From a virus (lineage: Duplodnaviria > Caudoviricetes), in IMG/VR virus record IMGVR_UViG_3300037400_003531, positions 5,532 to 69,531 of that record: 64,000 nt of DNA; one strand, written 5' to 3'. Position 1 is the first letter of the stretch. Every line of letters begins with the position of its first letter. The position numbers and the translations under genes were made by a program. Of this stretch, positions 6,461 through 29,607 are shown piece by piece. The notes below the pieces were generated by a model. That model was not told the origin of the DNA and made no database searches. It worked only from the letters and a program-made list of their open reading frames with translations.

Positions 6461-6470
6461 TGCAAAAGTA
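6461..6470 (-). promoter_or_regulatory. Host sigma-type promoter (-7 TACTTTTGCA), no dyad box; replication operon
   Basis: Matches the Bacteroidota TAnnTTTG consensus in an AT-rich intergenic region. Confidence 0.65.
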
Positions 6471-6638
6471 CAAATAAATATTGATATGTGGAGTAAAATG
6501 TTTAATAAATGTGCTATGTAATTACCTAAATCATTGAAATAAAATGTATTGTAAATTTGTTAAAAAATACAAAGGAAATGTCAATGACAAAATATAGCTA
6601 GATTAAAACTCATGTTTAACTAATTTAATCATTAAAAA

Positions 6639-12608: not shown

Positions 12609-13159
12609 TATACTTCATCCAAATTCTCAAACATTCCCTTTTCTTGTGTTCCTCGTATCTTTTCTTCGTGCTGCAAGTCGGTAAATATGGTTTTCTCTGT
12701 TTCTGTATATTGTTTGATGGCTTTGTTGTATGTCTCTATCAACTGGGTGGACTGATTCAATGGATTGATGAAACGGCCATCCTTGTTGGTCGCTCCTGGA
12801 TTAATATTCAGCATAAGCTCCTCCAATTTGTTGATATAAACCTGCTCTGAGGCTAGCCATTTTGCCTGCACCGGCAGTTTCTCTTTGTAAAAATCCTGAG
12901 CCGCTCTTATCTTTTCATCCGGCTTCCATCCTTTAGGCAAACCCTCATCTTTGATTATCTCAGATGAACGCTGCTCTGGGTCCGTAATGGCAAGATAGTC
13001 ACTCCTTGGGTCTTCCATCAGATATATGTACGATATTTCCATCCGGGCCATACGTTTATCTTTATTCTTATCACGTTCCCAGATGTCACGAAAAACTGAA
13101 AGACTCAAAGCTTCAGGTGCTATCTTGACCTCATAATCTTCGTATGTCAGTAGTTTCAT
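12608..13159 (-). CDS. Conserved crAss-like protein upstream of terL (terminase small subunit candidate)
   Basis: MKLLTYEDYEVKIAPEAL..RDKNKDK..YIYLMEDPRSDY; stop abuts the terL start. Start moved to ATG 13159 because the longer ORF runs through a terminator. Confidence 0.7.
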   Translation of the reverse strand: MKLLTYEDYEVKIAPEALSLSVFRDIWERDKNKDKRMARMEISYIYLMEDPRSDYLAITDPEQRSSEIIKDEGLPKGWKPDEKIRAAQDFYKEKLPVQAKWLASEQVYINKLEELMLNINPGATNKDGRFINPLNQSTQLIETYNKAIKQYTETEKTIFTDLQHEEKIRGTQEKGMFENLDEV

Positions 13160-15036: not shown

Positions 15037-15046
15037 TGCAAAAATA
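15037..15046 (-). promoter_or_regulatory. Host sigma-type promoter (-7 TATTTTTGCA), no dyad box
   Basis: Consensus match; upstream TCGATTTTTATTTG is near-identical to that of the 19775 promoter. Confidence 0.7.
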
Positions 15047-15107
15047 CAAATAAAAATCGACTTGTTTGGTTTTTGTAATAAAATATTCAACTTTTCTATG
15101 ATATTTA

Positions 15108-18587: not shown

Positions 18588-19049
18588 TTAATCTTTACTG
18601 CAACCCTTGAAGGCTCGGTTCCGAACAGAGTTCCATTTTAGCCAAGATCCAAATATCGACTTCTTATTTTTTCGTCTTAAATCATCACATAACTTTGCGT
18701 AAAGTCTCGGCTGTTCCTTTAAAGCATCTTTTAACCTTTCATTTTCACATTCAATAAACTTTATTCTTTCTTCAGTTTCTGTTATATCTTTGTATTTCTG
18801 CTCTATGAGTTCCAAAAAACGTTCATTAAATTGCTCTTTTGTTTCGGCAAACCAAAACATTTTACTTCCATATACATAACCACCGATTTTCTTTTCTTTA
18901 ATAATCATAAGGTCTTTGAGCAATTCACCAGAAATCCTATAATCGGATTTTTCATCAACATTTCTAGATAATAACTCTAAAACATTCCCTTTATTAATCA
19001 TTACTATATCACCATTATATAGTCTTACTATTTTTTCTATTTCTTCCAT
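18588..19049 (-). CDS. Hypothetical coiled-coil protein
   Basis: 153-aa AT-rich ORF; first gene after the non-coding block. Confidence 0.7.
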   Translation of the reverse strand: MEEIEKIVRLYNGDIVMINKGNVLELLSRNVDEKSDYRISGELLKDLMIIKEKKIGGYVYGSKMFWFAETKEQFNERFLELIEQKYKDITETEERIKFIECENERLKDALKEQPRLYAKLCDDLRRKNKKSIFGSWLKWNSVRNRAFKGCSKD

Positions 19050-19074: not shown

Positions 19075-19500
19075 TCATCCGATAAGGGTTTGAGCGTTTG
19101 GCTTGTGAAACCATAGTCTCCCCCTACCCCCAGGATAGAGTTTGACTTTGGTTTGCTTATACTTCTTCATCCGCCTAATGGGAATCACGTCCGTATAAGG
19201 TTGTCGCTCTTGGATGCTCTCACGACAACTTGCAGCATCTACAAAGCATCTTGCGCACCAGTCCACTTATTCAAACCGACTGCCAGCATTCGTGCATTGT
19301 CTCCCCGCCTTCTGCTGGTTTTTTACGAGGTTTGTGGGCGAAACATCTAACGTGTCAGTAAAACTGCTTTGTGGCCGTATAGTCCCACACTTCTCGGAAA
19401 TCCCACGGCAACTCACAATTTGTTACTTGGTGTGTAGGCCAACTGGCGTACATGGCATAATGCCTCCCGAACTCTATCAACACTTATCCTGTCCGTAGGT
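19075..19500 (-). ncRNA. Candidate large structured ncRNA (~430 nt)
   Basis: No credible ORF. Nested end pairings GATAAG/CTTATC and GATAGAGTT/AACTCTATC; internal helices GTTGTCG/CGACAAC, CCAGCA/TGCTGG, GATGCT/AGCATC, GTGGG/CCCAC. Confidence 0.5.
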
Positions 19501-19526
19501 TTCAATTGTTCAAAGAACGCAAGCCA

Positions 19527-19575
19527 AAAAAAAATCAACCTCTGCGTAACGGGGATTGCAGAGGTTGATTTTTGG
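19527..19575 (-). terminator. Strong intrinsic terminator after the tRNA-like gene
   Basis: 15-bp inverted repeat AAAATCAACCTCTGC/GCAGAGGTTGATTTT with a T9 tract on the minus strand. Confidence 0.8.
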
Positions 19576-19660
19576 CCTTTTAGTGTAGCCTAACACTTAA
19601 TCTCAACTCTTTAGCAGTTACCCGTATTTGCTATAAGTTTGCCTTTTCTTTTGGCTTTGC

Positions 19661-19732
19661 GACTGTGAATGGATTTGCACCATTGACCTGCGGTTTACTC
19701 GCCGCCGCTCTACCTATCTGAGCTACACAGTC
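19661..19732 (-). tRNA. Degenerate tRNA (Thr-like, AGT/GTA ambiguous), probable pseudo-tRNA
   Basis: Acceptor GACTGTG/CACAGTC, D-arm GCTC-AGATAGGTA-GAGC, T-arm AATGG-TGCAAAT-CCATT; anticodon arm is GCGG-CGAGTAAA-CCGC (one nt short, no U33); no CCA. Confidence 0.7.
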
Positions 19733-19774: not shown

Positions 19775-19784
19775 TGCAAAGATA
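19775..19784 (-). promoter_or_regulatory. Host sigma-type promoter (-7 TATCTTTGCA), no dyad box; drives tRNA/ncRNA and accessory operon
   Basis: Perfect Bacteroidota -7 box; followed by a boxA-like CGTCTTTGAAAG. Confidence 0.75.
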
Positions 19785-19954
19785 CAAAGAAAAATCGATA
19801 TATAGAGTAAAAAATACACATTTATGAATTTTTGAGATATATTTTTTTCGTACTTTATTTTGTATCACACAATTAATTTTTCTTGCATCTAGCAAAAAAA
19901 TTTGCGTTCGAGGGATAATACCCTTCTTTTTTTCGTGCCATTCCTACTATTTTA

Positions 19955-22282
19955 TTACTTTTCATTTCTATTTCTTTCTCCATTGCCAAATCTTCTAGGT
20001 GTATATTGGTCAGGAATCATCCCAATACCAGGAGTATACTTATATTCTTTTCTAAACTCAACTGCTTCAGGGTCATCACTATAATACCAATCCAATTCCA
20101 TATTATATGTAGGATGATTTCTATCCTTCATAAACTCATAAGAATTAGTGATAGGATTAAAAGCTACTGAATTAGCATGATAGCCATCATCTTGCTTAGT
20201 AAACAATCCCTTTTGAATTCCTTCATTAAAATCTTTAGGATAGCCATTTAACTCCCAGTATCTTCTCATGTTATATTCATCACCGCTATTCTTTAAGTTA
20301 TCAGGAAGGGTATTAAGAAATTTAGTGTATGGAGGTTCATCAATACTGCCTCCTTTCTCCTTTGAATGAATCTTCACTTCGGGTAGGACCCACGGTATTT
20401 GAATTAGCTTTTCATAATCTTCTCCCAAAGTTGGATCGTCCCAAAGATAGTTTATCATAGGTACAAGATGATGTTGTTTATACATCTTATCATATATTTC
20501 AAATGGCCAATACTCCAATTCCGAGGGTTGTATTCCACTTGTTACAACTACTGGATTTCCAATTCTATTCACTATATTTGCAGCTCTACTCCGTATGTCT
20601 TTTCCATAAAAGTCATAGTCATTCAAGTCCCATCCTTTCACATATCCCTTTCCAGTTTTTGAATCCACATAATAAGCTGTAGGAAAGTTCCCCGGGTCTT
20701 CTAAATATAATGCAGGCTCTCCATCTTCGTCTAATGTATAGCCTAAATAAATCAAGTCATCTCTTTTTGCTGCATCTGGCTTGCTCTGCCATACAGGTAT
20801 ATCTCGACCATCTTTTTCCACAGCCTTCTTTACCAATCCATAATCACCAGGCCGTTCAGTATATCCAGCCCTCCTAAACATTTCTGCCTGTTCTTCTCTT
20901 GGCATGAGAAATGTGGCCTGGGCCACACCATTATTATTATTCCTATATGGATTGAATAAAGCAGTGAATTTTGCTCCTTCCTGCCAACCAGTAAATGGGT
21001 CTTCATAACCACCCATATCTTCTCCCCAAATCTTTTGTCCTAAATTCATTATTTTGGCACTTCTTTTATAATGCCTTTGCAGTCTCTTCTCTTTTCTTTT
21101 ATCAGCATATTCTATCGGCTCCATTAATTGCTTGTCCGGCTCACTCCAATAGGGCGGGTCATCCAATAAACCGCCTTCAGCGAATTGAAAACCTTCTTTT
21201 ATACTTTGTATTAATGGATCTTCTGTATAAAAGTCATAAACATCTTCACCTGCTCTTCCAAAATTGACAGTTGTTGCTCCAAGATTCCAACCTGTAGCAA
21301 AACTATTAGCTGCTTGGGTTCCTCTTTTTTGCATCAATTGTTTTACAATTTCTGTAGCAGGTTTGGTCGTAATATCCTGTACTGCACTTGTAGTTGTATT
21401 AATAAAATTACCAGCTCTTGGAGATATTCTACCTACAAGATTACCTAAAACTTCTTCCCCAGTATCTAAAATGTTATTATTAAATCTAGCTAATCTAGAA
21501 CCATTCTCAACTGCTTTTACTTTACCAACTGCTGGCAACATTCCTACAAAATTCATTCCTACATTTTCACCAGAAGCAACACTATTTAAGAAGTCAGGTA
21601 CTCCAGTTAGTCCAGTCGGGTCAAATGGTTGTAAGAACCTTAATCCTTTCAAAGTTATATCCATTTCTTTTGGAGTAATAGGATGAGGTTCAAAAGGAGT
21701 TCTAGGATTATTTGGATTATCTCTTTTTACCTTTTCATCTGAATCATAGATAACATTTGGATTACCAGTTTCTTGTGATTGTCTAATAAATTGTTGAGCT
21801 TTTCTTCTTTGGTATTCCTCATCTGACATAGGTTCTGATGTAATATATTTTGGTGATACATTATTATCAGACAAAGTTATGTTTGGTGATGCTTTATATT
21901 GAATAGTTCTTTCTCCTACAATAGAACCTTCTTTACTCCATCCATGCTGTTTGGCTACATCAGCTACATACTCATAAGCTTGCTCATCTGACAACCCTCT
22001 TTGTTTAGCCTCGTTGAAAGCTTTTGTAATTATACTATCTGGATGATCTTTTGCATTTTCTACATGCCATTTGCCTCTAGCACGTTTTTCATTATCATTA
22101 ATATCATTTCTTTTAGGTACACTGTTTATTGGAGGGTAGTCTGGAGAAGTAAAACCACCTTCCGCAAATTCCATTCCATCCCACAATCTACGCATTGTAG
22201 CAAGGTCACGCACACCATGCCGCAGCATAATGCCCATGGCCTTGCTCTTTTGCGTTAAATTCATTTCGTCCCACTTCATCAT
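19955..22282 (-). CDS. Modular virion cargo/effector protein with GG-motif-delimited domains
   Basis: 775 aa; FAEGGFTSPDYPP, FAEGGLLDDPPY and EKGGSIDEPPY repeats; coupled to the upstream cargo gene. Confidence 0.7.
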   Translation of the reverse strand: MMKWDEMNLTQKSKAMGIMLRHGVRDLATMRRLWDGMEFAEGGFTSPDYPPINSVPKRNDINDNEKRARGKWHVENAKDHPDSIITKAFNEAKQRGLSDEQAYEYVADVAKQHGWSKEGSIVGERTIQYKASPNITLSDNNVSPKYITSEPMSDEEYQRRKAQQFIRQSQETGNPNVIYDSDEKVKRDNPNNPRTPFEPHPITPKEMDITLKGLRFLQPFDPTGLTGVPDFLNSVASGENVGMNFVGMLPAVGKVKAVENGSRLARFNNNILDTGEEVLGNLVGRISPRAGNFINTTTSAVQDITTKPATEIVKQLMQKRGTQAANSFATGWNLGATTVNFGRAGEDVYDFYTEDPLIQSIKEGFQFAEGGLLDDPPYWSEPDKQLMEPIEYADKRKEKRLQRHYKRSAKIMNLGQKIWGEDMGGYEDPFTGWQEGAKFTALFNPYRNNNNGVAQATFLMPREEQAEMFRRAGYTERPGDYGLVKKAVEKDGRDIPVWQSKPDAAKRDDLIYLGYTLDEDGEPALYLEDPGNFPTAYYVDSKTGKGYVKGWDLNDYDFYGKDIRSRAANIVNRIGNPVVVTSGIQPSELEYWPFEIYDKMYKQHHLVPMINYLWDDPTLGEDYEKLIQIPWVLPEVKIHSKEKGGSIDEPPYTKFLNTLPDNLKNSGDEYNMRRYWELNGYPKDFNEGIQKGLFTKQDDGYHANSVAFNPITNSYEFMKDRNHPTYNMELDWYYSDDPEAVEFRKEYKYTPGIGMIPDQYTPRRFGNGERNRNEK

Positions 22283-24987
22283 TTCCTCCTTCCTCTTCGC
22301 CCGATAGGTCCGTACATGTTCTCTACTCCCACGCCTGGATATACTCCATTCTCTACCAGCCAGCCTAGTGCCTCGTTGTTGTACCAGTCCTTATATGCTT
22401 CTCCCAAATTCGTCATCGCCGCACTAACTCCGGCACTGTTCGCCTGGCTGGCCAATGTGGTCGCTTCATCACGCGCTTCTGCCACACTCTTTACCCTGTC
22501 CCAATCCAACTGATTCAATCCAAAATTGGTTAACTCAGCACGGTTGGCAGCATCTGCATTCACTTTGTCAGTATCACGGTTGAACGAGGCTACCTCAGTC
22601 CTGTTTTTGTCATTGTACTGACGGGCCTGCTCATAGGCTGTGCCTATCCCTATCATGTCATTGAAGTCTGCTGCCAGCAAGGCTGCATCACGCGATGGCG
22701 TAATCCTATTTCCCAAGACTGCACGCGTACCTGCAGCTCTCCCTCTTTGCACATTACCCATATAGTCCATATCTATTGGGTCGTAGGCAAGATAGTGACC
22801 TATCGGAACATAGTCTACAGGCTCGGGTCTGGAGGTGTCTAGCAACATCGCTTTCTCATAGTCTGGACGGTTCCATGCTCCAGCCAACGCGATTCCTGCC
22901 GAGGCTATTCCCGGCCATGGACTGTAGCCGGGATAGGGTATCTTCTCGGCTGGCGCACCAGGAGCCTCAACAAAATAGTCCGTGTATCTCACACCGTCTT
23001 CTGTTGGCGTTCTGAACTGGTAAGGCGATGTGTAGTCCGCATGGCTTAACACCCATTGGTTGTATTCGTCAGGGTTGCCTATCAGCGTGTAGTTCTTGCC
23101 GTCCCTGATATAGTATCTGATGCCTGTCAATGGGTCGGGCAAAGTTTCTACTACAGGTTCTTTGGGTGTGGGAGCATTCACTTCATCCAAAATCCATTGT
23201 GGTGTCTTCCAGTAGGTACCAGGGTAATCATCTTCTCGCTTGTTGAAGATGTCGTTGTAGTTATGGGCCACGCCAGCCTTCCAGCTACCATCCTCATTCA
23301 CGAACTTTCTCGCCCATTTCTTTGCCGCTGCCGGCGTGTCTGCCGAAGCTATCACGTCGTTGAGGTATCTTCGCATATTCTCTTCCCCTGCTTTCAGCCA
23401 TGCAGTGCCCTGTTGGTAGGCTTTGCTATTTCGCATATACTGGGCCACTGTCTTTCTATCGGCTTCAGCTAATTTAACTCCATTAGCATTTGCTGCTGCC
23501 AAGGCCTCCAGCCAACCGGGGTCAGTGCTGCCGTTCCAAGCAGAACCACTTTCATTTCCCCATGCGCCGTTCCTAAAACTGATAGAACCTGCCTTGGGTT
23601 TCCCTCCATCGGGATATAGATGTCCTCCATTAGCCATCATAGGCGCTTCTGCCCCCATGGCTGGCATCCCCTGCATTGGCTGCTGTATCGGTTGCTGCAT
23701 TGGGGCCTCCTGAGGCATCTTAGGCACCTGCATGCCGATTCCCTCTGTCGGCATACCATATCCCATACCCTGTACGCCTTCAGTGGCCTGCATCGGCATT
23801 CCTCCAGCCAAGGCCGCAATCTCATCAGGAGTCATATAGCTCATCATTTTTTGGAGCTCTTTGGCGGCTTTCTCGGCTCTTGTCAGTTCTTGCGCATCCA
23901 TAAGCCTACCCAACATGTCATCCACCGTCTCACGGGCCACAAGGTCATTCTCTCGCTCCTCGCTTTCTTTCTGTATCATTTTGGCTATTTCCGCATAGCT
24001 CTTGCCTTCATATCGTTTGTTCGAAAGCACAAAATCTTTCAAAATGCCCTTGCGTGGTTTCAGACGGTTCGAGAAGATATAATTCTCTTTGTCCCATTTG
24101 ACTTCTCCCTCTTCTACCAGATTCGGCATTCCATCAGGGGCCACTCCAATAGGCACGCCACCTAGTGGGTTGCGTTCATGACTCCCACCTGCTTGTATCT
24201 CTGTCACTCCATTACCTCCGCTCATAGGGCTTCTTACCACTCCTCCTTCGGCATATACATAATCTCTCGCAAATTGTCCCAATCGGTCATGATTTATCTG
24301 TCCGGCACCCAATGCCAATGCATAGGCTCTGTTCGCTTCCTGTTCCTGTCTTTCCTGATTGTATATGTCAGCTTCTCGTCGGGCTCGGCTGTTGCGTATT
24401 TCATTTCCAATGATGCTACCAAACAAACCAACACCTGCGCCAATCGCTGTCCCTATTCCCGGAGCAATCATGCTCCCCGCTGAGGCCCCAGCGATAGCGT
24501 TTCCAACTACATTAGTCCAATATCCTCCGTGGTCATATCTATGACCCATATTACCACCGCATTTAAAATAGTCTGTCACCCCGAAATCATATCCGTCATA
24601 ACGAGGTAGGGGATCGATACGGGATAGTCTGGCTAATCCTTCCTGGCTTGTGGGTACTTTAACGGCTTCCGAATTATAACTATTTTTAGTGTAGTCGTTC
24701 GCTGTTCCGTAAATATCTGCAGCCATCCCTGCTGCTGCGCCTGCTGCTGCCAAATAAGGCATGTATGACGGCCCTCCTTGAAGCGTTTCAGGTGCAGGAC
24801 TACCAACCTCGATCTCATCCTGCGGGATAAGCCCTGCTTGCTGCGCTATCCAGCGGTAGGTGTTCGTACCTTCTGTTCCAGCCGCAGGCTTCGCAAACAC
24901 AGGCCACTGTCCCATAAATTCCGTTCCTATTGGTAACGGATTCTCTCCAAATGGATTTATTGTATATCTTCCTTTAACTTGTGCCAT
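22279..24987 (-). CDS. Cargo protein C1-like (ejected, membrane-spanning)
   Basis: Glycine-zipper helix AIAGASAGSMIAPGIGTAIGAGVGLFGSIIG; GGSHERNPLGGV..GMPNLVEEGE..YIFSNRL; follows the muzzle gene as in crAss-like phages. Confidence 0.8.
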   Translation of the reverse strand: MAQVKGRYTINPFGENPLPIGTEFMGQWPVFAKPAAGTEGTNTYRWIAQQAGLIPQDEIEVGSPAPETLQGGPSYMPYLAAAGAAAGMAADIYGTANDYTKNSYNSEAVKVPTSQEGLARLSRIDPLPRYDGYDFGVTDYFKCGGNMGHRYDHGGYWTNVVGNAIAGASAGSMIAPGIGTAIGAGVGLFGSIIGNEIRNSRARREADIYNQERQEQEANRAYALALGAGQINHDRLGQFARDYVYAEGGVVRSPMSGGNGVTEIQAGGSHERNPLGGVPIGVAPDGMPNLVEEGEVKWDKENYIFSNRLKPRKGILKDFVLSNKRYEGKSYAEIAKMIQKESEERENDLVARETVDDMLGRLMDAQELTRAEKAAKELQKMMSYMTPDEIAALAGGMPMQATEGVQGMGYGMPTEGIGMQVPKMPQEAPMQQPIQQPMQGMPAMGAEAPMMANGGHLYPDGGKPKAGSISFRNGAWGNESGSAWNGSTDPGWLEALAAANANGVKLAEADRKTVAQYMRNSKAYQQGTAWLKAGEENMRRYLNDVIASADTPAAAKKWARKFVNEDGSWKAGVAHNYNDIFNKREDDYPGTYWKTPQWILDEVNAPTPKEPVVETLPDPLTGIRYYIRDGKNYTLIGNPDEYNQWVLSHADYTSPYQFRTPTEDGVRYTDYFVEAPGAPAEKIPYPGYSPWPGIASAGIALAGAWNRPDYEKAMLLDTSRPEPVDYVPIGHYLAYDPIDMDYMGNVQRGRAAGTRAVLGNRITPSRDAALLAADFNDMIGIGTAYEQARQYNDKNRTEVASFNRDTDKVNADAANRAELTNFGLNQLDWDRVKSVAEARDEATTLASQANSAGVSAAMTNLGEAYKDWYNNEALGWLVENGVYPGVGVENMYGPIGRRGRRK

Positions 24988-25026: not shown

Positions 25027-28000
25027 CTATTCCAAATAGCCGACAATTACTGAATGCAATACGCTTCTCCAGTCTTTGTCGAGGTTTTTAGTCTTGGTCA
25101 GCCGCAGTTTTATCCATGGATTCCTAAACCTGTCTGTCATTTGCCCATACTCTTTTTCTGTGTAGCCGTCTCGTGGCATGTCGCTATGCCACATCCTAAA
25201 TTTTTTGGCTATCCGGGGATAAAGTCCCTCCCAGGTCGTAGTTCCCTGCTGATATTCCGTCATGCAGTCTAATCGGTCAAAATGTTCCCACTCCTTATAC
25301 CGGTCTTTTTGGTCTTCCTGGCTGTCATCAAATGTGTCAAACTGAAAGCTAACATTGGTCCATGTCTTGTCTGCCAGCGTGCTGTCCTTATCCGAACCGT
25401 CACTGTGGCATATCAGTTCCGTCCAATACGTCCTAAAGCTTCCAAAGTAATAGTTATAACGACCTGCATTGTGTTCATAGAGGATAGTCTTAGCTCCGGA
25501 ACCAGCATAGTCGCTTCCCATAGTTCTTAGCATTATTTCGTGTCCCAGGACCGATTCCATAAATGGTGTTCCTTCATAGTCGTAGAACGAGGTGAAATAA
25601 CCTATCTGCTCACTATAACTAAGTGCTGCCGTTCGGGTGACAAACATCACTTCACTATTCTTTTTGTCATATAGTCCGCGAAGGCATTCGAAACGATTAA
25701 GTCCCCATATGTGGGACATATCAGCCACTTCTTTTGCCCAACTGCCTAACCCTTTGTCAACTCCTATACTATGTATGCTACGCTGGCTATCGATATAGAA
25801 CAAATCACGTTGTCCGTCATCCATGAAATAAGTCCCTAAGGGGCTCTTCACGATACTCCATTTATTGTGGCATCCCAGATGTTCGTTCAGATAGTAACTA
25901 CCTGTTACCTTGCCACTGTTGGCAATCTCAAGCGGTACACCTGATTCCGTTTGTACCGCTTGCTGTTCGTTAAAGAGAATCCTACCAACACCACTATCTT
26001 GGAATGTTAGTATATCGTCAAAGTGCTTAACTAACCCTCGGATTGCTCCCTTTGCTCCGTCCATGTCTATGGTATTAGCCAAGGTGATATTTGTAAATAC
26101 GTCCGTGAATTCGCCTTTCTGTTTTGTCTTCGTCCATGCAACGGTCATCGGATATTCTTCTTGTATCTTTTTTCTATGGTCCAAGGCTCTATACTGAAAA
26201 TAGTTCGGTGTCTGACCATAGGCTTCATTTATCCTGTTGCTATTCGTGGGCCTTGTGTTCTCATTGTTTTCTAATCCGCGGTTCCTGTCATATCGGCCAT
26301 CTATGTTCACCCTCGTCTCACACATAAATGACACAATATCCACTATCTGGTTTAGGTCTTCTTCCGTATTAGGAATGGTATGTAGATTGTCATAACGCTG
26401 GTAATAAGTATCTCCCATGCTCCACTCTATCTGCACTACACTTTTCAATCGGTTATAGCTATCTCGCAACGATACGGCTTCCCCACATACAATCCATGTG
26501 TTTGCTGCCAAGGCTTCTTCACTCTCACCACCAAATCGATTGTGTATGTCTTGATCGTCCCTGTATAACTCTGCTAGATAGAATATACCGTAATTGTTTC
26601 CACAGATGACATTCGTTAGTTGCGTATTGGCTATGACCGATTTCTGTGTGAAACCACCATATTGGCCAATAGTATCCCACATATAACGCTTCCCACTCAT
26701 ATCAAATGTTCTAGATGTTACGGCACTTTCTGTATTGTCTGCCCATTCTATACCCCTACTTCTTTCTAACGGAGTTCCATTGTTAGCATATACGTCATTG
26801 TATGTACCAAATTTTGGCAGTGCACTTATTTCCTTTTTGTTATTGCGTGTAACAGATTTCAAGTGTAACACCATTCCAGTAGTCCCTCGATATTGGACTG
26901 GAACGGCTTCTGTTCCGACTACGCATGATGATGCTGTTGTCCGACGGTCTTCCTGGCCAGCAGCTCTGTCTACCAATGTTCCGATTCCGGGATATACGAA
27001 ATGGTTCGTATATTCATAGTTCCCCCACTCTTTCGTTCTTACATTTGGTACTACCATCCTATTGACGCTGAAGTCAAAGATTTTCGCACCTCCGTCTACT
27101 TCAAATTGAACCAACCCACTGTCTACTGTGTTAAAATAGCTAGGCTTATCAATATCTATTGTTACTTCATCATCCAGCGGTATACTTTCAAATGAATATC
27201 TGATACTGTCATATATCTTTTTTTGCAATGTGCTTTTCGACTCACAAATGTACCTTGGAGAAAACGTCCCTAGGCCTGGTCCTCTCAGTCTATCATAGTT
27301 CTCTATCACCTCTTCATAGGTCAGCGTCTTGGTGTGGAAAGGATATATCTTATTGGTGCCATAGTAGTCTACATGATGGTTCTCTTCATCCATCCCCACA
27401 TAGTCATCATGAAAGTCAGCCTGTATACCTCCAAATTCCGTGAACTGCCATTGGCCCATGTATGTGTCTGCCACGCCGCCTTGCTGCACCTCTCTTTTTG
27501 GTGTATGGAAATAATTTTCTTCTGCAATTCGTTCTGCTGCCATGTATACACCCTCATTATGATATGTCAGAGGCACTAATCCTACTATCCTCATCTTCAC
27601 ACCGTCCATATCCATCTTTGCCATCTCACTTAAATATTCTACTTCGGGACTATGAAACGTCTCTATACTCTGGTCAACAAAAAACTCCGACCGCAAATGA
27701 CTTGCCCTGTTCTCTACTGTCACTTGACTATTGTTTACTGACTTCTCTTGCCATGGATATACATTAGCCCATATCGTATAGTCTATCGTCTTGAACGGAC
27801 TATCACTTCCATTTGCAATATAGCCTTCATAATTATTTACCAACTCGGCATTACTGCCATATCCCCCATCACTACCATAGTATCTGTTTGTCGGCGGCAA
27901 GGGATGAAAATGCCTCACTTCCAGCCCTCCATGCCGTGTTATCCTATTGGGCTCTTCCAAATCGTCAATATCTGCTGGACTCAGATCTTCTTCACTTATC

Positions 28001-29607
28001 AAGGGTCTACTGAACCATGACATCATTCCATAAACTCCGCCTTTTACTCGGTCTTCAATATTGTATAGCGAGGGTGTCAATATGCCTTGGGCTAATACGC
28101 TTCTGTCTCCATAATCAGGATATACTACTACAGGCCGCATCGCTACATAATCGTCCAATAAGCTACCTAATTCTACTAACCTTATTTCACCTCCAAAAGT
28201 AGCCAAACGCCTCTTTAAGTTATTCCGGTCGCTCGCCAGCACGTTTATACCATAGTTCATCAACTCCTTTACTTCACTTTGTGGTTTTAGGTTCTGTAAA
28301 AAATCATTTCCATTCGCACTATCACCACTTTCTATTCGCACTACATCACTCCAGTTCCCATATCGGTCCTGAAACTGTACTCCAAATCTATAGGTTTCAT
28401 GATACTTGAAATATCGTATTTCAGAAGCAGATTTGTCAAGCTGCGATTCCCATTCATATTTTCCAAGGGTTCTAGAAAGAGCTATCTCTTTGTTGTTTCT
28501 AAATCCCAAACTATTGAAAACGCCTCCTACCTGTGTCCCCAATTTTATTTTCGCTCTCACAGCACTACTTACATAATAGTGCTTTTCTTTGATATTACCG
28601 TAAAAGGCTGTATTGTCTTTTTGGGTCATCGTTTGGCAGGTGATGTCTTTCGCTCCGACATAAAGCAAATAGGTGCTTTCCATGTCCTCACCGGTCCTAT
28701 TTGTATCCACATAAACAGCTTGCCCTGCGCTATCTATGCTTAGGTCTGCCAGCCTCTTCACTATGGGTAGTCCGTCTTTCGAAATTCTGACGATGCTATA
28801 TAGCCGGACTCCATCATAGTCTTTTCTTAACCCTCTCATCAGTATTCGAAAGCTACAAGCCACATTCTCATCTGGCGCACTCCCTCGCTCGTCATCTGAT
28901 AGATAATGCATATCAGACACAGACACCACACTACTCTCTTGTGCATACTCATGATAGTAGGTAAAGGCATACTGAATCGTGCCACTGGGAAACAGACCAT
29001 TACTATTGTTTATGCGCTCTATGCTCATCGATTCACTCCCTCCTATCTCTTGAGCATAGTCGAAACTTTTATCATTGTAGGTCTTGTCTAATTGCATGAT
29101 GTTGATGAGCCTCGGCTGGTTCTTACCATCCGTCCAATAGACTTTTTGTATTTCTTCCGCTTCGTAAAAAGTCATTGCCTCTATTGGATATTCCAGGTCA
29201 AAGTTCAAATCTCCTTCATACAGCAAATATCCCTTTACCGGTGCTCCGTCACTTGCTCCGTCTTCAAAGTCTACACGATATATATAGTCCCTATTAATGG
29301 AAATCAGCTCTCCCGTTTCCGGATACCTAACCCAGATGATACCATGAGTGAATACTGCCATCTTGTTGCCTATGACTGCAACTCCTAGGACAGTTCCTTT
29401 TAGATTGTCCTTTATCCATTGACCATTGGTGTTGAATTTTACTGTTATTTCTGCTGGGCCCTTTTCGTTTGTTAATACAAACTTGCTCGTGTGGCGGTCT
29501 GTCACGAGTCTTAGGTTCCTATTCTCATAGGCAAACCGAGCATCGAACTTGCTCATCGCAAGGTCTCTGTTCATGCCTATAGGCGTAATCACTGCATTCT
29601 TTCTCAT
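25027..29607 (-). CDS. Muzzle / tail stabilization protein (P22 gp10-like)
   Basis: 1526 aa; GMNRDLAMSKF..FAYENRNLR, KVYWTDGKNQPRLINI, YFKYHETYRFGVQFQD, LEIANSGKVTG. Confidence 0.85.
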   Translation of the reverse strand: MRKNAVITPIGMNRDLAMSKFDARFAYENRNLRLVTDRHTSKFVLTNEKGPAEITVKFNTNGQWIKDNLKGTVLGVAVIGNKMAVFTHGIIWVRYPETGELISINRDYIYRVDFEDGASDGAPVKGYLLYEGDLNFDLEYPIEAMTFYEAEEIQKVYWTDGKNQPRLINIMQLDKTYNDKSFDYAQEIGGSESMSIERINNSNGLFPSGTIQYAFTYYHEYAQESSVVSVSDMHYLSDDERGSAPDENVACSFRILMRGLRKDYDGVRLYSIVRISKDGLPIVKRLADLSIDSAGQAVYVDTNRTGEDMESTYLLYVGAKDITCQTMTQKDNTAFYGNIKEKHYYVSSAVRAKIKLGTQVGGVFNSLGFRNNKEIALSRTLGKYEWESQLDKSASEIRYFKYHETYRFGVQFQDRYGNWSDVVRIESGDSANGNDFLQNLKPQSEVKELMNYGINVLASDRNNLKRRLATFGGEIRLVELGSLLDDYVAMRPVVVYPDYGDRSVLAQGILTPSLYNIEDRVKGGVYGMMSWFSRPLISEEDLSPADIDDLEEPNRITRHGGLEVRHFHPLPPTNRYYGSDGGYGSNAELVNNYEGYIANGSDSPFKTIDYTIWANVYPWQEKSVNNSQVTVENRASHLRSEFFVDQSIETFHSPEVEYLSEMAKMDMDGVKMRIVGLVPLTYHNEGVYMAAERIAEENYFHTPKREVQQGGVADTYMGQWQFTEFGGIQADFHDDYVGMDEENHHVDYYGTNKIYPFHTKTLTYEEVIENYDRLRGPGLGTFSPRYICESKSTLQKKIYDSIRYSFESIPLDDEVTIDIDKPSYFNTVDSGLVQFEVDGGAKIFDFSVNRMVVPNVRTKEWGNYEYTNHFVYPGIGTLVDRAAGQEDRRTTASSCVVGTEAVPVQYRGTTGMVLHLKSVTRNNKKEISALPKFGTYNDVYANNGTPLERSRGIEWADNTESAVTSRTFDMSGKRYMWDTIGQYGGFTQKSVIANTQLTNVICGNNYGIFYLAELYRDDQDIHNRFGGESEEALAANTWIVCGEAVSLRDSYNRLKSVVQIEWSMGDTYYQRYDNLHTIPNTEEDLNQIVDIVSFMCETRVNIDGRYDRNRGLENNENTRPTNSNRINEAYGQTPNYFQYRALDHRKKIQEEYPMTVAWTKTKQKGEFTDVFTNITLANTIDMDGAKGAIRGLVKHFDDILTFQDSGVGRILFNEQQAVQTESGVPLEIANSGKVTGSYYLNEHLGCHNKWSIVKSPLGTYFMDDGQRDLFYIDSQRSIHSIGVDKGLGSWAKEVADMSHIWGLNRFECLRGLYDKKNSEVMFVTRTAALSYSEQIGYFTSFYDYEGTPFMESVLGHEIMLRTMGSDYAGSGAKTILYEHNAGRYNYYFGSFRTYWTELICHSDGSDKDSTLADKTWTNVSFQFDTFDDSQEDQKDRYKEWEHFDRLDCMTEYQQGTTTWEGLYPRIAKKFRMWHSDMPRDGYTEKEYGQMTDRFRNPWIKLRLTKTKNLDKDWRSVLHSVIVGYLE

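Follow-up and report, generated by a model that had tools for sequence, protein, structure and literature searches.

The large structured RNAs GOLLD and ROOL, roughly 580-800 nt long, are among the closest described counterparts of the locus presented here, which centres on a shorter non-coding block of ~450 nt (block A). Like GOLLD (RF01998) and ROOL (RF03087), block A is phage-borne, measures hundreds of nucleotides, is devoid of ORFs, is enriched in GC relative to its surroundings and adjoins a tRNA gene, in this case a tRNA-like one. In contrast to them, it matched neither of the two covariance models at E<10, received no support from covariation, displayed an ordinary folding energy and is known from two copies.

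Phage morons, a concept said to come from Hendrix and Juhala, and accessory cassettes in general form a second point of comparison. The locus shares with them a strain-variable insert of deviant base composition that is situated between conserved genes, bounded by a terminator and replaced in a close relative. It departs from them in that half of the cassette is non-coding, this half being better conserved than the gene which accompanies it (ORF153), and in that the cassette lacks a recognisable promoter of its own.

A third comparison, made by description only, is with the cis-regulatory structured leaders of phage genes (candidate structured RNAs of Fremin et al. 2023, PMC10690425). Block A resembles them in preceding a gene directly, in following a Rho-independent terminator and in having a 3' domain that is stable in a strand-specific manner; it is, however, far longer than is typical of such leaders and is without covariation. 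With group I introns carrying a homing-endonuclease ORF, it has in common the combination of a GC-rich, structured-looking block and a small ORF whose presence varies between close relatives. Unlike in these introns, neither model RF00028 nor its subtypes gave a match, no host gene is interrupted, the corresponding site of the close relative L002 is filled with other sequence instead of being empty, and ORF153 displays no endonuclease family. Finally, a boxA-like string and a conserved small hairpin, both close to a terminator where an operon begins, are reminiscent of lambda nut (boxA/boxB) and rrn antitermination; here, however, the boxA-like string comes after the terminator, needs an inserted base and does not exceed chance, and no N- or Q-like protein was identified.

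The source of the locus is a crAss-like phage, as indicated by matches to crAss_MUZ (759 bits) and crAss_CARG1 (134 bits). The viral record measures 69.5 kb and is 68% complete; the stretch of DNA analysed here, called the window, covers 64 kb of that record. Nearly all genes of the window are carried by the minus strand, on which the elements encountered from position 19800 onwards are, in this order, a promoter box, the tRNA-like gene, its trailer, a terminator, block A, a spacer and ORF153 (Table 1). In DAC15, a crAss-like phage from GenBank, giant genes follow directly after the cargo genes, which indicates that the module of small genes starting with this locus is lineage-specific. Homologues of the 149-aa gene located downstream were detected at 57% identity in two contigs (L018 and L019), where the surrounding small-gene module is that of another type of phage, equipped with an SPP1-type portal and a terminase; this points to an accessory module common to unrelated phages.

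Table 1. Coordinates of the features of the locus and of its surroundings. Positions refer to the window, apart from block B, which is positioned on L002, the closest relative; L012 is the contig carrying the second copy of block A.
Feature	Position	Strand	Remarks
Crassvirus muzzle protein, 1526-aa ORF	25027-29607	-	759 bits
902-aa ORF with cargo-protein-1 domain	22279-24987	-	domain match
Bacteroidota-type -7 promoter box TAtcTTTGCA	19775-19784	-	similar extended sequence at 15046 and 6470
Degenerate tRNA-Leu(UAA)-like gene	19660-19732	-	Rfam tRNA, 50 bits
tRNA trailer, 85 nt	3' of tRNA-like gene, before terminator	-	holds the 5-bp hairpin
Conserved 5-bp hairpin with loop UAGGCU, in tRNA trailer	19582-19597	-	directly before terminator
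Intrinsic terminator (perfect 16-bp stem, 12-nt loop, T-run)	19526-19573	-	inverted repeat; variable cassette starts here
Block A, GC-rich ORF-free non-coding block	19078-19525	-	initially annotated feature plus 25 nt at 5' end
63-aa ORF, not a gene	19075-19266	-	GTG start is GCG in L012
Block A 3' domain	19101-19250	-	z=-2.76 on minus strand, -1.15 on plus strand
A/T-rich spacer, 28 nt	between block A and ORF153	-	
ORF153, orphan 153-aa protein gene	18588-19049	-	adjoins block A in both copies
Block B, ORF-free, ~290 nt, 46% GC	L002 13215-13468		same slot as block A

From 20449 to 15046, the minus strand carries no canonical promoter box other than this one, which is 100% identical in L002. 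Three minus-strand sites (19775-19800, 15037-15062 and 6461-6486) have in common a motif (TCGATTTTTnTTTGTAnnTTTGCA-like) that extends further than the generic TAnnTTTG box, which suggests that these promoters form one temporal class.

The initial annotation had located the block right after a terminator and behind a pseudo-tRNA, and both neighbours were recovered, the terminator immediately upstream of block A and the tRNA-like gene ~135 nt upstream. The latter was missed by ARAGORN at default settings and called as tRNA-Leu(taa) at a relaxed threshold (-ps80); its L002 copy was called at default settings. The gene displays a G at position 33 in place of the universal U33, a further G at T-loop position 55 and a T-loop reading UGCAAAU, and it is devoid of a long variable arm. 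In L002, U33 is kept and one of the D-loop GG is lost. The tRNA-Leu(UAA)-like gene is probably not a normal decoder. One of its anticodon-stem pairs is C-G here versus T-A in L002. The stem of the trailer hairpin likewise reads AGUGU/ACACU here versus AUGGU/ACCAU in L002 (~13134-13149), which amounts to two compensatory pairs, while the loop is invariant between the two phages. These compensatory pairs, two in the trailer hairpin and one in the anticodon stem, indicate that such small elements act as RNA, and the hairpin may be a processing or protein-binding site.

The 23-nt T-arm AGGTCAATGGTGCAAATCCATTC, with its UGCAAAU loop, was also found, identical, in six other IMG/VR contigs (L004, L005, L007, L008, L009 and L010). 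In all six, an insert of ~68 nt replaces the anticodon loop of the tRNA-like gene (a gene situated at ~4935-5075 in L007), and the insert-bearing genes were called neither by ARAGORN nor by the Rfam tRNA model. They may represent a tRNA-like element, expanded or bearing an intron, that belongs to crAss-like phages.

The composition of block A was as first described, with a GC content of 0.47-0.49 inside versus 0.26-0.35 in the flanks, and it is the sole GC-rich ORF-free gap within the window. The absence of a credible ORF was likewise confirmed: stops occur in every frame, and the six-frame translation, which also served as a test for a pseudogene, yielded no match in Pfam. Stop-codon recoding was tried and rejected, as no frame was opened by reassigning TAG, TGA or TAA singly. 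Block A is non-coding.

Block A does contain ORFs of 41-94 codons, among them minus-strand ORFs of 63 and 49 aa and a plus-strand ORF of 94 aa, and the 63-aa product displays a CxxC...C string and a basic tail. That one or several of them encode small proteins is nevertheless hardly credible. In L012, both the GTG start and the sole internal ATG of the 63-aa ORF are lost, and the changed codons (none synonymous, nine non-synonymous) indicate that it is not under purifying selection; its Atlas recognition score of 1301, from a protein language model, is low and lies far under the range of real proteins. The 94-aa ORF displayed one synonymous and four non-synonymous changes in the part covered by L012. 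Submitted as a protein query to a word-index search of a 5.8-billion-protein collection, it retrieved no candidate, not even itself, which implies that it is not a called gene.

Comparison with known RNA families was equally negative. No Rfam family was obtained for block A on either strand, at gathering score or at E<10. Over the whole window, Rfam 15 at gathering score returned tRNA only, and at E<10 the tRNA-like gene was the only match within a 1-kb context, block A alone giving none. Hallmarks of tmRNA, RNase P and SRP had been reported as absent; ARAGORN indeed found no tmRNA, and Rfam gave no match to any of the three, nor to 6S. Two further candidates were rejected. One was that block A holds the remains of a tRNA array: Rfam at E<10 found only the gene of Table 1, ARAGORN at 80% called that gene only, and its extra calls at 60% fell over the terminator and the 5' edge of the block. 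The other was a retron or UG/Abi RT-associated ncRNA: no RVT_1 match was found in the 69.5-kb record (68% complete), and a retron link through ORF153 was rejected likewise, this protein containing no RT family.

The initial annotation regarded the block as a candidate large structured RNA with paired ends. All complementary words listed in its favour are present in block A, including GATAAG/CTTATC and CAGGATA/TATCCTG, and the perfect 9-bp pair GATAGAGTT/AACTCTATC joins 19470-19478 with 19134-19142. A further 9-bp pair, TTTGGCTTG/CAAGCCAAA (19520-19528 with 19097-19105), closes the MFE fold, and GAUGCU/AGCAUC may form a pseudoknot. Pairing of the 5' and 3' ends was upheld as far as the words are concerned, but not in strength: the best duplex between the first and the last 70 nt reached -35.5 kcal/mol versus -28.3 +/- 4.4 for shuffles, a marginal value matched by 5.8% of these. 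A global fold was not supported, since the MFE of the whole block gave z=-0.8, with 20 out of 100 dinucleotide shuffles folding as well. In sliding windows of 150 nt, z was ~0 over the 5' two-thirds of the block, and the 3' domain was the only window notable for folding. This domain is predicted to be locally stable in a strand-specific manner (Table 1). It is composed of three adjacent hairpins, including GUUGUCG/CGACAAC and CUUAUAC/GUAUAAG, and displays only three substitutions relative to L012, the fewest of block A.

The second copy on L012 did not add to the structural signal. Placed on the full-length MFE fold, three substitutions disrupt base pairing, two leave it intact and another three concern positions whose partner lies off L012. 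A consensus fold of the common 246 nt, fitted to both sequences, kept 71 out of 71 pairs, four of them via wobble; compensatory double changes were found in none of the 71, a comparison of two sequences at 96% identity that has no statistical power. The SCI of 0.904 was indistinguishable from that of 400 random mutants with the same kinds of substitutions (0.889 +/- 0.040). The closing helix displays two substitutions in its 3' arm in L012, the partner arm being off the contig. These data are compatible both with a conserved fold and with none, and a global, ornate fold of block A is without positive support.

Further copies were sought in several collections. Block A was absent from GenBank phages (blastn), plasmids, GTDB genomes, the rest of its own genome and the sister genomes; a 22-mer kept in both copies was not found in IMG/VR, and a 19-mer gave two chance matches only, on high-GC contigs, in JGI metagenomes. 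Searches with the flanking genes, including the downstream 149-aa gene, led to L002-type loci or to unrelated contexts lacking both block A and block B.

These results bear directly on the proposal that block A represents an undescribed class of large structured ncRNA, free-standing, acting in trans and akin to GOLLD and ROOL, with its ends paired round a multi-domain fold. Several features agree with it: the block is ORF-free, GC-enriched, next to a tRNA-like gene and outside any known family; its end pairings are nested, with a 9-bp closing helix that forms part of the MFE; it surpasses synonymous sites in conservation, as judged from one sequence pair; and the corresponding slot of L002 is taken by block B, which is ORF-free, unrelated to block A and folds with z=-2.2. 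Such an RNA is nevertheless unlikely in view of the z values for the whole block and its 5' two-thirds, the ease with which shuffles match the end duplex, the altered closing helix, the lack of covariation and the ordinary SCI, together with a total of two copies over IMG/VR, JGI metagenomes, GTDB genomes, GenBank phages and plasmids. With two near-identical copies over all collections searched and no structural evidence, the claim of an undescribed RNA class is at present not supported.

The second copy resides on an 899-nt ENA contig (L012) that starts inside block A and runs through the ORF into different downstream DNA, where a search with the next gene gave no relatives. The contig also provides the single homologue of ORF153 (P0002, 78% amino acid identity) retrieved from a set of 5.8 billion clustered proteins. 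When 1.84 billion representatives were searched in full with HMMER, nothing convincing emerged beyond P0002, apart from one weak repeat match; no relatives were detected in IMG/VR, by single protein or by alignment, and no family in Pfam or PHROG. The AlphaFold model of ORF153 (pLDDT 44) was too poor for use. Residues 34-82 are weakly similar to a unit of which the 1088-aa protein P0011 contains five repeats.

ORF153 and its homologue differ by 11 synonymous and 29 non-synonymous changed codons, and the gene appears to be subject either to near-neutral evolution or to diversifying selection. The stretch of ~25 codons at its end, starting at ~18660 where homology to L012 ceases, is junction sequence, and the final ~15 lie in DNA common to L002, homology to which resumes at 18648. 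Judged from these boundaries, the tail is the by-product of a recombination junction at which the C-terminus was replaced.

Block A was better conserved than its neighbour. Its 3' 246 nt are 95.9% identical in L012, with no indels and 10-11 substitutions, versus 87.9% identity for ORF153 (Fisher p=0.0005). About 11 of the 70 synonymous sites of ORF153 were changed (~16%), versus 10 of the 246 positions of block A (4.1%; p=0.0016), so that block A diverged ~4 times slower than these synonymous sites in the one sequence pair and over the 3' 246 nt only. This difference in rate, from a single pair, is the best evidence for purifying selection, under which block A is probably held as a non-coding element. 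A recombination breakpoint at the boundary between block and ORF would give the same picture of conservation.

The same comparison weighs on the idea that block A is non-functional passenger DNA, i.e. a decayed gene or foreign remnant carried along with the ORF153 cassette and of younger ancestry than ORF153. The locus is a recombination hot spot, as witnessed by the unrelated sequence in L002 and the fusion at the 3' junction of ORF153; minus frame 0 consists of 49 and 63 codons split by one TAA, which resembles a nonsense pseudogene; and folding is ordinary, with substitutions that look random relative to structure. A remnant of this kind is possible, if somewhat doubtful, given that no frame displayed similarity to a protein family or was recognised by the language model, that the two copies agree in this TAA and in their frame breaks and differ by no indels, and that the fourfold lower divergence relative to ORF153 synonymous sites shifts in coincidence with the block/ORF boundary.

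Short repeats were also encountered in block A. GGGGAGACWATG occurs exactly twice, as had been noted, at 19295-19306 and 19112-19123, 183 nt apart, with 0.45 matches expected at ≤1 mismatch across the whole 64 kb. TACGGACnnGAT occurs twice and AAGTGTnnGnCTAnAC-like strings three times, among several direct repeats of 10-12 nt; iteron-like regular spacing was not found among the repeats of the block. The boxA-like string GTTCTTTGAACAA (19518-19506) is present as annotated, but its fit to rrn boxA held only with an inserted base: the rrn boxA consensus did not recover it at ≤2 mismatches and was not enriched within the window.

Such repeats, and conservation without a structural signal, could be taken to mean that block A acts as DNA, in the form of a protein-binding region that serves as an origin of replication, in packaging or recombination, or as an operator cluster. 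However, imperfect 12-mers are by estimate about as numerous as expected by chance for 450 nt, they lack iteron-like spacing, and the 3' domain stands out for its stability on one strand but not on the other. Replication genes are, according to an earlier note, at least 12 kb away. Origins are usually AT-rich, and block A is GC-rich. A role as a DNA site is on these grounds very unlikely.

The nature of the insertion became apparent from L002, a 99.9-kb contig and the closest phage in IMG/VR, in which both flanks are 86-92% identical. L002 keeps the promoter, the tRNA-like gene, the trailer hairpin and the downstream genes. Homology ends at 19572, beyond which L002 is unrelated until 18648; at the same site, it carries a different hairpin and T-run terminator, block B and no ORF153. 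Since the flanks are kept without block A and ORF153, these two form a swappable cassette; and since they are adjacent in both copies while the downstream DNA differs, the pair travels together and has recombined into different backgrounds.

Block B folded somewhat better than its shuffles and matched no Rfam family at gathering score or at E<10. Common k-mers and the local alignment score revealed no similarity between blocks A and B above chance. Block B was also found in L006, L011 and L021, all four retrieved copies being identical. Blocks A and B could conceivably be interchangeable, lineage-specific large ncRNAs behind a tRNA-like gene and a terminator, with the tRNA-like element as a processing or expression handle. 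They would then occupy the first position of an accessory operon, and the ncRNA might act with a partner protein, e.g. ORF153, in dealings with the host. This view is regarded as unlikely.

The explanation tentatively preferred here, without our holding it to be probable, is that block A is a functional non-coding element, either an RNA leader or a processed ncRNA, of the ORF153 cassette. The cassette would comprise the terminator, the ~450 nt of block A as its upstream half and the orphan ORF153, and recombination would have put it at the head of a small-accessory-gene operon in a crAss-like phage. Transcription of block A from the minus strand would most likely proceed by read-through from the promoter at 19784, across the tRNA-Leu-like gene and the terminator. 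The block would act as RNA and in cis, as a long 5' leader or after processing, and its 3' domain, the hairpins of which end ~50 nt before the start of ORF153, may control the stability or translation of ORF153. Action as RNA on the minus strand, in a form tied to ORF153, appears most likely for four reasons: the sole promoter lies upstream, local stability is strand-specific, the conserved part abuts ORF153 and the two parts co-occur.

Several observations weigh against this preferred reading. A strong terminator stands between the promoter and block A, for which no promoter of its own was found. Folding of the whole block is no better than that of shuffles, no compensatory pair is displayed and the SCI is that of random mutants. 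The higher identity of block A may reflect a recombination breakpoint, or a fast or diversifying ORF153, instead of constraint; and the comparison concerns two sequences and the 3' part only, the 5' 200 nt lying outside L012.

Block A is accordingly presented as an orphan candidate, part of an accessory cassette with a putative long conserved non-coding leader that belongs to no described family. No viruses of the human gut are more abundant than crAss-like phages, and to our knowledge almost nothing is known about their non-coding RNAs. At present one orphan locus with two copies, block A could be the first member to come to light of a larger set of ncRNAs. It accompanies a fast-evolving orphan gene and is exchanged at a tRNA-linked hot spot, which could be indicative of a site where phage and host are in conflict; and if blocks A and B were truly interchangeable, they would constitute a new, fast-turning-over kind of phage ncRNA.
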